From a virus, in IMG/VR virus record IMGVR_UViG_3300023210_000013, positions 51,582-115,581 of that record: 64,000 nt of DNA, one strand, 5' to 3'. The stretch's first letter is position 1, and each line of letters starts with the position of its first letter. The position numbers and the translations under genes were made by a program. Below, piece after piece: positions 9,276 through 63,872 of this stretch. The notes beneath the pieces are model-generated. The model saw only the letters and a list, made by a program, of their open reading frames with translations. It did not search any database and was not told the origin of the DNA.

Positions 9276-10682
9276 TTATACTATAAATCTCATTGTTGTT
9301 CCATCATATGTAATAACTGATCCATTAATACCTAATGATGTACCGTCAAATGTTAAGTTTGCTTCCCCATTAACTGTTGTTCCACCTGTAGCTGTTATTA
9401 CTCTATTGTTACTATTATTTAAAACATCTAAAGTAGGTCCTGTTGCACCGTCAGTTCCGTCAGTCCCATTGGTACCGTTAGTTCCATTAGTTCCGTTTGT
9501 TCCATCAGTACCATCAGTACCATCAACACCAGGATCACCTTTAGCCCCAGGGTCACCCTTGGCTCCTGGATCACCTTTTTCACCGGGCTCTCCTTTTTCA
9601 CCAGGATCCCCTTTAGCTCCGGGATCTCCATTAGTACCATCAGTACCATTGGTGCCATCTACTCCGTTAGTTCCATTGGTTCCATTGGTTCCGTCTGATC
9701 CATTTGTTCCTGGATCACCATCAACCCCATCAACCCCATTGGTTCCATCACTTCCATCTGTTCCGTTGGTACCATTTGTACCATTTGTACCATCTGTACC
9801 CGGATTACCTTTGTCTCCTTTAGGTCCTGTATTCCAAGAACATGCACCTGAATCTGAGTTATAAGTTGAATCACCGCCAGGAAGTATTATAACACCAGGC
9901 ATCCATTTTAAAGATCCCGTGTCTGCATTATGTTGAGCAATAAGTAACCAATTTTCATTAGGTATAACACTTGAACCATTATAATCAAGAACATGCAATG
10001 TACCTGATTGATAATCTTCACCGTATTTTTGTATCCAATATAATCCCCACCATCCTGGAACGTCAATTCCTGTATTAGCGGGTATATCTATGTGACCATT
10101 ACTACTTAAGTTTTTACTTACAGGTATACAGATAATCCTAGATGTCCACTTTAATACACCGTTTTTCCAAGTAACAGTACCACCACCACTCATAGAGTAG
10201 TTAGCATGTGCACCTTCAAATACAGTTGTTAAATCTTGATCAACTGTTGCACCTGCACTAATACCATCTAATTTTGTTTTTAATGCTGCTGTAAAGTTCT
10301 TTGTGGTTAATCCACCGTCACCTACAGAATATGTTGTGTCTTTATCTGATGTTGTAACCGTTGATGTTGTATCATCTGCATGAGTAAATGTAATTGTATC
10401 ATTACTAACTGATGCTGATTTAATTGGGTTTACACTAGCATCTAATTTATTACCAATGCTGGTAGATATAGTTGTAGAAAAATTAGGATCATCACCTAAT
10501 GCAGCTGCCAATTCATTTAATGTATCTAATGTAACAGGTGCGGAATTAACTAAGTTTGTTATAGATGTTGTTACAAATTCTTTTGTAGCAACAGTTTTAC
10601 CCAAGTGAGTCATTACATCAGTAGATGCAATCTGTTCTCCGCTTATGGTTAATTCTCTTTTAGATGGTGTAGTTGTTGCCAT
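9276..10682 (-). CDS. Tail fibre with collagen-like tract
   Basis: Classic fibre motif LVNSAPVTLDTLNELAAALGDDPNF plus a GTN/GTD/GDP Gly-X-Y tract. Confidence 0.85.
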   Translation of the reverse strand: MATTTPSKRELTISGEQIASTDVMTHLGKTVATKEFVTTSITNLVNSAPVTLDTLNELAAALGDDPNFSTTISTSIGNKLDASVNPIKSASVSNDTITFTHADDTTSTVTTSDKDTTYSVGDGGLTTKNFTAALKTKLDGISAGATVDQDLTTVFEGAHANYSMSGGGTVTWKNGVLKWTSRIICIPVSKNLSSNGHIDIPANTGIDVPGWWGLYWIQKYGEDYQSGTLHVLDYNGSSVIPNENWLLIAQHNADTGSLKWMPGVIILPGGDSTYNSDSGACSWNTGPKGDKGNPGTDGTNGTNGTNGTDGSDGTNGVDGVDGDPGTNGSDGTNGTNGTNGVDGTNGTDGTNGDPGAKGDPGEKGEPGEKGDPGAKGDPGAKGDPGVDGTDGTDGTNGTNGTNGTNGTDGTDGATGPTLDVLNNSNNRVITATGGTTVNGEANLTFDGTSLGINGSVITYDGTTMRFIV

Positions 10683-35933: not shown

Positions 35934-36178
35934 AGTTACAGTTTTTTTAATTGATTCTTATATATATAATATACTAATTTTTAATGTCAAAATTAAATTT
36001 TTTTTAAACAAAATACAAATATAAGATCCCCCCTTCTATTACAAGCAAATGTTGCCCCCGGTCCTCAGAAAGTTTTATGTATGGCATTGGTGAGAGGTGG
36101 TACTATTCAACTCCCCAGCAAAATTTTGCGGTTATGGTACCCCCGCTTCTGCGGTACCAACACTTAAATTATATCATT

Positions 36179-36469
36179 ATGTACTTTTACAAATTTACAA
36201 ACTCAAACAAAGGAATCGTTACAACTGAGCAACCTCTAACTGGTAGTGCTACCAAGAAGATCACCAAGGTTATTGGTGGTGTGGAAATGGAAGTCCTACA
36301 ACAACGTGATCAAATAGAAGGTCTCAAGTTTGGATTTACTGCTATAAGCCCAGACGTTGTGGCTCAAATGGACCTGAAGGTTGGTGATGAGTTGCCACTG
36401 GAACTGACAGACAAAGCTGTCAAAAACAGAGAGGGTGAAGAAATCCCAAATCTGTACTGGGCTCACTAA
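36179..36469 (+). CDS. Small early protein, paralog 1
   Basis: Start MYFYKFTN at 36179 chosen from the alignment with paralog 2; ends GDELPLELTDKAVKNREGEEIPNLYWAH. Confidence 0.75.
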   Translation: MYFYKFTNSNKGIVTTEQPLTGSATKKITKVIGGVEMEVLQQRDQIEGLKFGFTAISPDVVAQMDLKVGDELPLELTDKAVKNREGEEIPNLYWAH

Positions 36470-36728: not shown

Positions 36729-37004
36729 ATGACGTATTTTTACAAACTTACGCAGACTGGTAAAGGAATAGTAACCACTACTGCACCGTTGAACAAAACA
36801 ACGGAAATCAAAAATATTGGTGGAGTTGAAACTGAAGTAAGAGTTCAGAATCAAGATGTATCATTTGGCTTTACTGCTATATCAGCAGACACTGCCGCGC
36901 AGATGAACCTAGCAATAGGTGATGAACTGCCACTTGAAATCACAGATAAGCCTGTGAAAAACAAGGATGGTGAGGTAATACCCAACATGTTTTGGGCTCA
37001 CTAG
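36729..37004 (+). CDS. Small early protein, paralog 2
   Basis: MTYFYKLTQTGKGIVTT...FGFTAIS...GDELPLEITDKPVKNKDGEVIPNMFWAH. Confidence 0.75.
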   Translation: MTYFYKLTQTGKGIVTTTAPLNKTTEIKNIGGVETEVRVQNQDVSFGFTAISADTAAQMNLAIGDELPLEITDKPVKNKDGEVIPNMFWAH

Positions 37005-37058: not shown

Positions 37059-37299
37059 AAAACACACGTTGCACACTAAAGGTGACATCATATAACCCAT
37101 ATAAGCACACTTTAAGCAATGATATTAATTATCTTATCCATATATATAGATATAGCTATAAAGATCACTTAGGCAGAGCAAACTATTACATAGTAGTTGT
37201 TATCTCTCTCTATAGTATCTTATGTATCTCTTCTTATATGAATAGTATTATATTACCCGGAATATTACAACAGGCACATAGATATATACCTGTATAAAC

Positions 37300-37610
37300 A
37301 TGGTTGGTCTAATCCAGTGAGCTGCTGGCGTAAGAGAGAACTTACAGTAATCTAAACTCAACTAATAGAATAAGTGTAGCAAGACAAAATAAAGGCTAAG
37401 ACGTTAGTCATCCTACTGTCACTAGATGACAGCTTGTAAATGCCATGTCAGCAGGGATGCTACACTTATATCTATAACTCTTAATGGTTAACGTCAGATA
37501 CATGTATCAAATAGTTAATCAGTTATATACTTTTGTGAATTAACAGTATACCTGGAACCCATCGTGGTGTAAAGGCAGACAGGTTGGGATACCCTACAAA
37601 AGTATATTAT
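37300..37610 (+). ncRNA. Candidate structured ncRNA modules 1 and 2
   Basis: ORF-free; perfect 12-bp closing stems 37370-37381/37458-37469 and 37525-37536/37596-37607 with internal hairpins; G-U pairs fit the plus strand. Confidence 0.5.
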
Positions 37611-37654
37611 ATAATAACATCACCTAAAGCTGAAGAGCATTGTACTATCCTATT

Positions 37655-37870
37655 ATGTCAAAAGAAATAACAAGTACAATATTTATAAAAGATGCAGAGA
37701 TAGATAAGTTTGTATTATCTATTGGAGGTAGTATAAGAACCACACCATTTAAAACATATAAACCACCTGTTGGGTTATCATTTGATTTTAATTGGGTAAG
37801 AGATGGTGTTGAAATAGACCTATTCAAAATAATTAATCATTTAAAACTAAATCGTAATGGTAAAGACTAA
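37655..37870 (+). CDS. Hypothetical protein
   Basis: 71 aa from ATG 37655. Confidence 0.45.
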   Translation: MSKEITSTIFIKDAEIDKFVLSIGGSIRTTPFKTYKPPVGLSFDFNWVRDGVEIDLFKIINHLKLNRNGKD

Positions 37871-38057
37871 AACTATGCTATTAAGCATAACCGTATTCAT
37901 AATCACAGTAGTAATATTTAACACACTCGTATGGTATCTACAAGATACTTGGACATTCAAAGAATGCTTTGGCCATGGTGCAACAATAGGCTTCTCAGTT
38001 ATATTTGCTTGGATACCTGCTGGTATCGTAGGAAATGATTACTACAATCGTATTTAA
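37857..38057 (+). CDS. Small membrane protein (2 TM)
   Basis: Two hydrophobic segments; AATCATTTAA leader. Confidence 0.6.
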   Translation: MVKTKTMLLSITVFIITVVIFNTLVWYLQDTWTFKECFGHGATIGFSVIFAWIPAGIVGNDYYNRI

Positions 38058-38059
38058 AG

Positions 38060-38770
38060 AGAACACCCGTGAGGCTAGCGGGCGTGTTAGAGTGTCACGT
38101 AGATACACTTAAGAGGATAGCTTGTCAGCTTGGCTCTGCATATGTTAGGACTATAGGTCTGTTGTAGGTTTGACAACCCTGAACCATATGTTGATTTGCT
38201 AGTTTAACATAAACTAGAATCGTCAACCGGGGAAACGGTCAAGTAGAGGTAACCAAGCTCTACATTTTTTTAACAATATTATAAATAACTAGTCAATAAA
38301 AGCAGTAGTGGCTACCTGCAGATAAACAATGTTAAGTTGAAGGTGGAATAGTTAGACTATTCATAAGCCCATGTGTATGTAAACTGCATACAATAGACTC
38401 ATCATCGTGGCCTTGACTAGTTTTCTATTAAAGTCTAAAAGCAAAGATAACCTCACTTGTAAAACAAGGGTAGATACCATAACAATTGGTTGAGTGAGTA
38501 AAGAATCAGGGAAATAAGGTTATGCGTTAAAACCTGAATGATTGCTATAGACTAAAAATACGTGTTTAGGTAATTCTAAACTAGTGTGACACACATGAAG
38601 TGAAGTAGGTTAATTACCTATAGTGTCTAATCAACCAATGAGTATGTTGGTAGGTGTTGGTCTCACCTGATAATCAAATGACTTATTCCTAACTATGTAA
38701 AGCAATAATGTAATTCTCATAGGACAACCGTGCCAGTTGAAGTTGGATAAAATAGACTGGCTTTTTTTAC
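38060..38770 (+). ncRNA. Candidate structured ncRNA modules 3-6
   Basis: About 710 nt without an ORF; nested stems, closing helices, a pseudoknot and two terminator-like ends (38243-38271, 38732-38768). Confidence 0.55.
38732..38768 (+). terminator. Intrinsic terminator
   Basis: GCCAGT...ACTGGC followed by T7. Confidence 0.6.
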
Positions 38771-38793
38771 AAACCACTTAACAAAATCATATC

Positions 38794-38982
38794 ATGGATA
38801 AATTTACTAGAATTAGCGTACACATTGCTGCTTATTTTGTAGCATTCAATCTATTTAGAGTTGCACACCACTCATCAGGAGAAGGTAACTGGCAAATCTC
38901 TATTATGTTCTTCGTATTAGGCGTATTCACAATGTATATACCGTCAATGCTAACAGCAAAAGAAAAAAAAAATAATCACTAA
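38794..38982 (+). CDS. Small membrane protein (2 TM)
   Basis: Two hydrophobic helices and a basic tail; AACCACTTAA leader. Confidence 0.6.
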   Translation: MDKFTRISVHIAAYFVAFNLFRVAHHSSGEGNWQISIMFFVLGVFTMYIPSMLTAKEKKNNH

Positions 38983-39001
38983 CCATTTAATCATAAGAAC
39001 T

Positions 39002-39163
39002 ATGAAAACTAAATCACTTTACTTATTACTTGCATTGTTTCTGGTTACACCAGTACTACAATCATGCGGATCATCCAAACGTGGATGTAAAAAGATGAGA
39101 AAATACCGTACTTACTCATTTGGAGACAACCAACAAGAAACACAAACTTACAGATTGGGATAG
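39002..39163 (+). CDS. 53-aa lipoprotein (not in the ORF track)
   Basis: MKTKSLYLLLALFLVTPVLQS-CGSSKRGCKK...; basic n-region, hydrophobic h-region, lipobox LQSC; AACCATTTAA leader. Confidence 0.7.
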   Translation: MKTKSLYLLLALFLVTPVLQSCGSSKRGCKKMRKYRTYSFGDNQQETQTYRLG

Positions 39164-39209
39164 ATAGACTATCCCTTTTACATTTATCAACCACTTAATC
39201 TTATCAATC

Positions 39210-39494
39210 ATGAGAATACACATTAAAGAACCAAGCAGATTTGCTATGCTCAATGGAAACATTGTGCTTACACACTTTCAAGACACACACAATACTATCA
39301 TACGTAACAGTGATGGAGATATACAACGTGTTAAGAATGAAAAATTAGAAGGCTTAACTTTAGAAGAGTTAAATGAAGGCCTATTAGAGAACATATCGTT
39401 ACGTGAAGTAGCTGCAATAGAAGAATACATTGTAGTTGGTGATCATAATAATGATGATGAATCATACATGGCTTACGTCACATCTTATTCTTAA
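39210..39494 (+). CDS. Hypothetical protein
   Basis: 94 aa; AACCACTTAA leader. Confidence 0.6.
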   Translation: MRIHIKEPSRFAMLNGNIVLTHFQDTHNTIIRNSDGDIQRVKNEKLEGLTLEELNEGLLENISLREVAAIEEYIVVGDHNNDDESYMAYVTSYS

Positions 39495-39520
39495 CCAATT
39501 AATATCTTAATATACACTTT

Positions 39521-62249: not shown

Positions 62250-63872
<1,623 letters not shown>

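Follow-up and report, generated by a model that had tools for sequence, protein, structure and literature searches.

Comparative sequence analysis suggests a family of structured RNAs with a shared 3' domain in uncultured aquatic phages

The non-coding gap at positions 38058-38793 of the stretch shown above raises the question of what kind of RNA it encodes: a switch that governs transcription of the genes behind it, or a folded RNA with a function of its own. The window, i.e. the whole 64,000-nucleotide stretch analyzed, corresponds to the right-hand part (64 kb) of an IMG/VR virus record of 115.6 kb. By its sequence, this virus is a distant crAss-like phage: the portal, major head and terminase proteins have matches among PHROG families, and the terminase shares about 25% identity with its crAss-like counterparts. 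A GroEL-type chaperonin gene (PHROG 5725, E 1e-170) is present at 62253-63872. The strand of transcription switches near position 36000, and past about 36000 small + strand ORFs are separated by unusually long non-coding gaps. The RNA element treated here has a length of about 205 bases and occupies the first 215 nt of the gap at 38058-38793. Phage genomes are usually read as protein catalogues, while the early region of this phage appears to spend more than 1 kb on folded RNAs.

The proposed closing helix and the fold kept in relatives

A sequence-only reading of the window had described a multi-way junction RNA whose closing helix, formed by 38127-38139 with 38243-38259, would block a terminator hairpin and thereby control read-through into the downstream genes in the manner of an attenuator or riboswitch. 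All complementarities listed in that reading are indeed present. AGCTTGG (38127-38133) is complementary to CCAAGCT (38253-38259) and, with one G-U pair, CTCTGC (38134-38139) to GTAGAG (38243-38248); GTAGAG also pairs with CTCTAC (38258-38263), which is followed by A and seven T. The other arms, CATATG/CATATG, TTGA/TCAA, CTAGTTTA/TAAACTAG and ACCG/CGGT, are found as well. Both folds are possible in the window and equal in energy by nearest-neighbour rules, with -44.8 kcal/mol for the fold of the earlier reader and -44.9 kcal/mol for the comparative fold described below. The closing helix is part of the MFE structure of 38120-38275 folded alone and is missing from that of 38058-38275, in which the upstream hairpins are included. 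Pair probabilities in the window ensemble (partition function) are 0.05-0.07 for the closing helix, 0.62-0.74 for hairpin P3 and 0.91-0.93 for the terminal hairpin P7. The MFE of the whole region is not unusual when compared with shuffles (z -1.6 on the + strand, -2.1 on the - strand). With fold energies that are nearly equal and an unexceptional MFE, a single sequence cannot decide between the two folds.

In relatives identified via neighbouring proteins, non-coding DNA is mostly unalignable except for 37801-38274, which is 78-82% identical in L029 and L021/L023/L024, the similarity stopping exactly at the T-run. A pattern made from an invariant block retrieved 19 viral contigs, all of them true homologues with 69-82% identity. 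A looser pattern yielded 31 viral contigs and a metagenome scan 51 more loci (TARA, GOS and lake samples), so that the family counts 57 distinct sequences of viral or metagenomic origin; all members but the first four were detected by sequence patterns, and the family boundaries rest on such searches. The fold of class 1, as found in the window, was tested on an alignment (A6) of 26 distinct full-length sequences and 500 shuffles. The features are:

37857-38057, + strand: gene for a 66-aa membrane protein upstream of the RNA; protein conserved in relatives
38066-38271, + strand: whole RNA element of class 1, hairpins P1-P7 and U-run; 69-82% nucleotide identity to viral contigs
38066-38082, + strand: P1, hairpin CCCGU/GCGGG; 99% paired, C-G changed to U-A in L130, loop length varying by 3 nt
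38091-38109, + strand: P2, hairpin AGUGU/ACACU; 100% paired, two pairs changed on both sides
38112-38137, + strand: P3, local hairpin; outer helix AGAG 38112-38115/CUCU 38134-38137, inner helix AGCU 38119-38122/AGCU 38127-38130
38127-38139, + strand: 5' strand of the proposed closing helix (proposed partner 38243-38259); pairs in the window, not conserved
38139-38190, + strand: P4 domain; stem CAUAUG/CAUAUG, inner hairpins 38148-38160 and GGUU-UGAC-AACC 38167-38178
38191-38226, + strand: P5, hairpin UUGA...UCAA with inner CUAGUUUA/UAAACUAG; its 3' strand holds the family-wide GUCAA (38222-38226)
38226-38239, + strand: P6, ACCG/CGGU; loop G-GGAA-A, in which G and A enclose a GNRA-type tetraloop
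38240-38257, + strand: cross-helix pair C38240-G38257, joining the nucleotide that follows P6 to the final nucleotide of the P7 loop; crosses P7
38243-38263, + strand: P7, terminal hairpin GUAGAG/CUCUAC with 9-nt loop GUAACCAAG (38249-38257); pair probability as given above
38265-38271, + strand: U-run, seven T; together with P7 a moderate putative intrinsic terminator

The P1-P7 chain is 93% paired in the 26 sequences, and 17 pairs are changed on both sides. None of the 500 shuffles reaches any of the fold measures, and pairing falls to 34-45% when the partners are slid by 1-3 columns. RNAalifold gave the same fold on smaller sets. In P3, where AGCU-UGUC-AGCU lies inside AGAG/CUCU, the outer helix is 100% paired with three out of four pairs covarying and the inner helix is 97% paired with two covarying pairs. 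The P4 stem is 100% paired and five of its six pairs are changed on both sides; GGUU/AACC is 99% paired and the hairpin at 38148-38160 was read by eye from the alignment. P5 is 99% paired in its outer helix and 98% as a whole (alignment A4). Many pairs are G-U, equivalent to A-C mismatches on the other strand, which points at an RNA read from the + strand. The only ORF of the element (38069-38167) is broken by single-base indels in relatives, and the element is thus not coding. On this comparative evidence, the window RNA is a real, conserved, folded RNA of uncultured aquatic phages. All-versus-all column covariation within class 1 was swamped by the lineage of the window and L133 and gave nothing beyond the 38240-38257 pair.

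The closing helix does not share this conservation. Over its 13 pairs, both pairing (62%) and covariation score (0.067) equal the shuffle means in the 26 sequences, and 166 and 289 of the 500 shuffles, respectively, do as well. Apart from the window, its near-twin L133 is the only sequence with the full helix. The 3' strand of L159 (GUAGAG-GUAA-CCAAGCU) is that of the window, but the 5' strand is non-complementary and the closing helix is broken; P3 is kept in the same sequence by compensatory changes (GAAG/CUUC, GACU/AGUC). The closing helix is also disrupted, with no compensating change, by substitutions in the P7 loop: L021 and L079 have U for A, and six sequences have U for G. G38257, which had been assigned to C38129, covaries with 38240 instead in 40 of 40 sequences. 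Since P3 covaries in both of its helices, the 5' bases of the closing helix are better explained as the 3' half of P3. Of the arms described, the upstream hairpins, CATATG (P4), TTGA/TCAA (P5), ACCG/CGGT (P6) and the terminator hairpin are conserved; lost along with the closing helix are GTTGT/ACAAC, which is 24% paired in relatives, and part of TTAGG/CCTGA. A weaker alternative pairing of the 3' strand of P3 (CCUC) with GAGG of P7 comprises at most 4 bp and is lost in L130.

A switch should leave two mutually exclusive helices, both kept in relatives, and a constant class of downstream genes. Among the relatives, the terminator hairpin is the only one of the two helices kept, and it is followed by at least six unrelated families of small ORFs, by RNA modules or by tRNA-like genes, which also speaks against the claimed control of read-through into the downstream genes. 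What stands of the attenuator proposal is a structured + strand RNA ending in a hairpin and a U-run. We infer that the closing helix is a lineage-specific coincidence. The terminator/antiterminator picture, tempting when read from one sequence, fails in the comparison with relatives, and a false lead is removed.

The 3' domain and the RNA family

All classes of the family share a 3' domain that consists of GUCAA, the hairpin P6 with its GNRA-type loop, a linker and P7. It was analyzed in an ungapped alignment of 66 columns and 40 distinct sequences from all classes; GUCAA, P6 and GGUAAYCA were fixed in the search patterns and their invariance is partly built in. This applies to the invariant P6 stem, too. 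The P6 loop reads G-GNAA-A, with N being G, U, A or C within the family and the rest constant. In the P7 stem, four pairs are changed on both sides in 10-16 sequences each, resulting in the variants GUAGAG/CUCUAC, AAGAG/CUCUU, GGAGG/CCUCC, AAGGG/CCCUU and CAAAG/CUUUG. The 9-nt loop is conserved as GUAAYCA plus two bases (GU or RG). The pair 38240-38257 (columns 29 and 46 of the alignment) is A-U in 22 and C-G in 18 of the 40 sequences, without exception. Both states occur within class 1 and also within the set of L089 versus L153/L175, pointing at two or more independent switches. As it crosses P7, the pair is a small pseudoknot or tertiary contact.

With a six-bp stem, a 9-nt loop and A plus U7 behind it, P7 has the form of an intrinsic terminator. 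Its energy alone is -6.3 kcal/mol in the window and ranges from -6.3 to -7.8 kcal/mol; a consensus terminator scan gave no call, its upper limit for the loop being 8 nt. P7 is followed by a T-run in all 27 class-1 members, in three of 13 class-2 members and in 12 of 15 others, and the 13 out of 55 members that lack the U-run keep hairpin and loop. As P7 and its loop are intact without a U-run in ten of the 13 class-2 members, the hairpin appears to be part of the RNA and not merely a terminator.

The family is defined by the GUCAA junction, the ACCG-G[GNAA]A-CGGU hairpin, a covarying stem of 5-6 bp, the loop GUAAYCA plus 2 nt and the pair between linker and loop. Window positions 38212-38277 show all of these features and fit the covariance model R1 of the 3' domain with 76 bits (E 2e-17). 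In the whole viral record, this model finds only the single copy of the window, and there is one copy per genome in the family. Neither did the model detect diverged copies in 69 related loci without the pattern; among these loci the RNA element is either near-consensus or absent.

An Rfam search, suggested in the sequence-only reading, matched no family. None of the 4227 models of Rfam 15, including riboswitches, ribozymes, GOLLD, ROOL, tRNA and tmRNA, matches the window at its gathering threshold, and at E up to 10 the region 37300-39300 gave chance-level matches only, with no match to a tRNA model. ARAGORN found no tRNA or tmRNA in the window. Over family members in other loci, Rfam reported only neighbouring tRNAs and one pistol self-cleaving ribozyme (RF02679, 52 bits versus a threshold of 34.5; L089:988-1042 = L164:11248-11302), which is located about 0.8 kb upstream of a member of the RNA family. 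Blastn searches with the region, a class-2 member and the 3' domain gave no true match among 50,697 GenBank phage records, a set that presumably includes T4 and T5. A pattern scan of 185,579 prokaryote genomes returned 17 matches, which we read as chance because all are GC-rich and coding-like and lack the GUCAA flank or the stem. The window RNA is, by sequence comparison, a member of an uncatalogued family of phage structured RNAs, one that is spread across marine and lake phages and absent from the catalogues queried (Rfam 15, GenBank phages and prokaryote genomes).

At least three 5' domains that are unrelated to one another occur in front of this 3' domain. In class 2, it is preceded by a covarying H-type pseudoknot with helices Pa (11 bp) and Pb (8 bp), in which eight and seven pairs, respectively, are changed on both sides; the loop of the 11-bp helix Pa pairs with a distant segment. 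Class-2 members sit in tRNA arrays, 3-5 nt ahead of the next tRNA or tRNA-like gene. In L140, for example, the class-2 RNA fills the gap between a tRNA (9909-9980) and a tRNA-like gene, and the class-2 RNA generally lies between tRNA or tRNA-like genes and not inside one. The ten class-2 members without a U-run are directly followed by a tRNA-like gene, and this setting together with the missing U-run points to release by tRNA processing. The tRNA-like genes located 3-5 nt after the class-2 RNA (L162:1524-1616, L140:9550-9656 and L101:711-806) have a length of 93-107 nt and possess an acceptor stem as well as D and T arms, while the place of the anticodon arm is taken by a different, long hairpin; ARAGORN made no call on those of L099 or L101.

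The window copy resides outside any tRNA array and ends in a terminator-shaped hairpin. The stop codon of the 37857-38057 gene is located 8 nt before P1 with no terminator in between. Fourteen loci were examined for their upstream neighbour, which is the 66-aa gene in seven class-1 loci and another stem-closed RNA module in the other seven; in L093, the 66-aa gene follows the RNA instead of preceding it. On the downstream side, the next feature is either a further RNA module or a small ORF that begins 32-37 nt behind the hairpin, and these ORFs belong to at least six different families. The folded RNAs look exchangeable between contexts, and modules are shuffled among relatives. Protein clusters shared by RNA-carrying loci are ordinary early and replication genes, none of them present across all classes, and PHROG scans of the neighbours identified only a terminase of the same family in L102 as well as ligase, polymerase and helicase.

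Possible roles of the RNA

On balance, we favor the view that the element is a stable structured RNA cassette that acts in trans and is not an attenuator. The RNA would be made as the 3' end of an early transcript that carries the 37857-38057 gene and ends at P7-U7, and would perhaps be trimmed later. In class 2, tRNA-processing enzymes would cut out the equivalent RNA. The product would in both classes be a compact, stable RNA of about 205-250 nt, the invariant loops of which may be contacted by a protein or another RNA. It would form one cassette of a modular set of folded RNAs that phages shuffle between their early regions and tRNA arrays. The ends, stability and processing of the transcript are deduced here from sequence context. 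No partner protein emerged from the shared clusters and no target RNA from the complements of the P7 loop within the window, which amount to 12 sites against 14.8 expected, i.e. no enrichment. Counting against action in trans, most class-1 relatives have the start of an ORF about 35 nt behind the U-run, and it is therefore conceivable that the terminator, leaky or protein-controlled, has a role in cis.

Several known systems invite comparison. T4 species 1 and 2 (rnaC, rnaD) and T5 RNA1 and RNA2 are small stable tRNA-like RNAs of phage tRNA clusters, and the question of what such orphan stable phage RNAs do has been open since their description in these phages. The RNA family resembles them in that it is phage-encoded, 100-250 nt in size and without assigned function and that its class-2 members are likewise found inside tRNA arrays, from which tRNA processing could free them. 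The T4 and T5 RNAs, however, are tRNA-like, whereas the window RNA receives no tRNA or tmRNA call, has a 3' domain of its own and lies outside a tRNA array. GOLLD and ROOL are phage-borne and elaborately folded as well, with some members near tRNAs, but the window family matches neither of them in Rfam and is much smaller (about 205-250 nt). With attenuators and riboswitches, the element has in common a structured leader-like RNA ending in a hairpin plus U-run and an alternative pairing that is possible in the window sequence; it differs from them in that this pairing is not conserved, that no constant gene follows and that the hairpin is kept without a U-run. In this family, a compact and strongly constrained 3' domain is combined with unrelated 5' domains, and its members come in two forms, terminator-ended and tRNA-punctuated RNAs. 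An object of about 200 nt can be synthesized and could be used for asking what the orphan stable phage RNAs do.

A bolder version, which we hold to be doubtful, is that aquatic phages possess a new functional class of RNA with the 3' domain as its active core, be it a ribozyme or a high-affinity decoy or ligand for a host protein, and that the interchangeable 5' domains tune it. The host protein could be a defence nuclease or a tRNA-processing enzyme, and the RNA would be delivered from tRNA arrays or early transcripts.

It is unlikely, though worth weighing, that the element is a protein-controlled terminator or antitermination site acting in cis, at which a phage or host factor binds hairpin P6 and/or the loop of P7 and sets passage into the gene about 35 nt downstream. 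P6 is located 3 nt before P7, and P7 itself, with its loop of 9 nt, reaches only moderate stability (-6.3 to -7.8 kcal/mol) and was not called by the terminator scan. In most class-1 relatives, an ORF begins 32-37 nt behind the hairpin, and the conservation of the loop goes well beyond the need of a plain terminator. Such a site would yet leave the large covarying 5' domains (P1-P5 and the class-2 pseudoknot) without a role; P6, P7 and loop are kept in the 13 of 55 members that lack the U-run, ten of them continuing at once with a tRNA-like gene, and no candidate protein co-occurs among the RNA-carrying loci. The lambda nut site (boxA/boxB) and HK022 put are similar in having a short hairpin with a GNRA-type loop near a terminator in a phage early region, and lambda N binds boxB. 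The window element is far larger, however, and the likeness is one of resemblance only, with no N-like protein or boxA identified. A resemblance to the rrn/lambda boxA (GCUCUUUA) falls in the freely covarying strand of P7 and was rejected.

Quite unlikely in our view is a cassette-boundary element, in which the 3' domain and T-run would combine the functions of a terminator, a 3'-end stabilizer and a DNA recombination point for the shuffling of early cassettes. T4-type phages possess promoter-early stem-loop (PeSL) cassettes, which offer themselves for comparison. Such a boundary would agree with the fixed distance at which the 3' domain stands ahead of many different small ORFs, with the shuffling of modules in relatives and with the finding that the element is near-consensus or absent among the 69 related loci. 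Against it stands that the P7 stem is free to vary in sequence as long as it pairs, which indicates selection on RNA and not on DNA identity. The N position of the GNRA-type loop varies freely while the cross-helix pair covaries, and class 2 resides in tRNA arrays and not at ORF boundaries.

Less probable still is a catalytic RNA, be it a new self-cleaving or other ribozyme, or an anti-defence decoy such as a mimic of a CRISPR repeat or a tRNA. The invariant nucleotides of junction and loop, the GNRA-type loop, the cross-helix pair and the pseudoknots in sister classes would suit such a molecule, as would the pistol ribozyme about 0.8 kb from one member and the setting among tRNA-like RNAs. 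No Rfam ribozyme model matches, however, even at E up to 10, and two likenesses, one to the hairpin ribozyme (GUCAACC...GAAAC) and one to a Cas13b repeat (GGGUAAUCA), are short and topologically inconsistent. The Cas13b repeat string had no match in a literature search, and a loose CRISPR-repeat pattern gave chance-level matches in three Bacteroidota genomes. A hammerhead-like string (CUGAAGAG) occurs in few members only, and a likeness to the SRP Alu loop was rejected with the others, these being short, at odds in topology or unverifiable. An attenuator or riboswitch-like element that controls read-through downstream via the closing helix is extremely improbable in the light of the relatives.

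Neighbouring modules and signals of the early region

Tandem paralogous genes for small proteins (YFYK.T...KGIVTT...IGGVE...) are located at 36170-36469 and 36729-37004, each with C-rich repeats ahead, and show 56-78% identity in six viral contigs. They are followed by non-coding modules at 37140-37613 upstream of the RNA, which are 77% identical in L029 with weak similarity in about ten other relatives and are, judged by this conservation, probably further conserved RNAs. Directly at the 5' end of the RNA, L084 (1040-1118), L088, L092 and L093 have a module of about 75 nt with a closing stem of 10 bp (ATAACTAATA...TATTAGTTAT), and a different stem-closed module takes this position in L080, L082 and L085.

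A separate non-coding module with its own hairpin and T7 at the end resides at 38553-38767. It is 88% identical in L078, L084 and L091, where it directly follows the homologue of the RNA described here and the intervening 38286-38552 is absent. This separate conservation shows that modules are conserved individually and shuffled. The motif AACCAnTTAA occurs at 38772-38781, 38981-38990, 39189-39198 and 39493-39502, 21-22 nt (28 nt for the last site) before the ATG of four consecutive small early ORFs. From its position, it could be a promoter or a translation signal. A related motif is present after the T-run of homologues of the RNA, as AACCACTTAA in L106 and as AACCACTAATAC in L127, L155 and L097.
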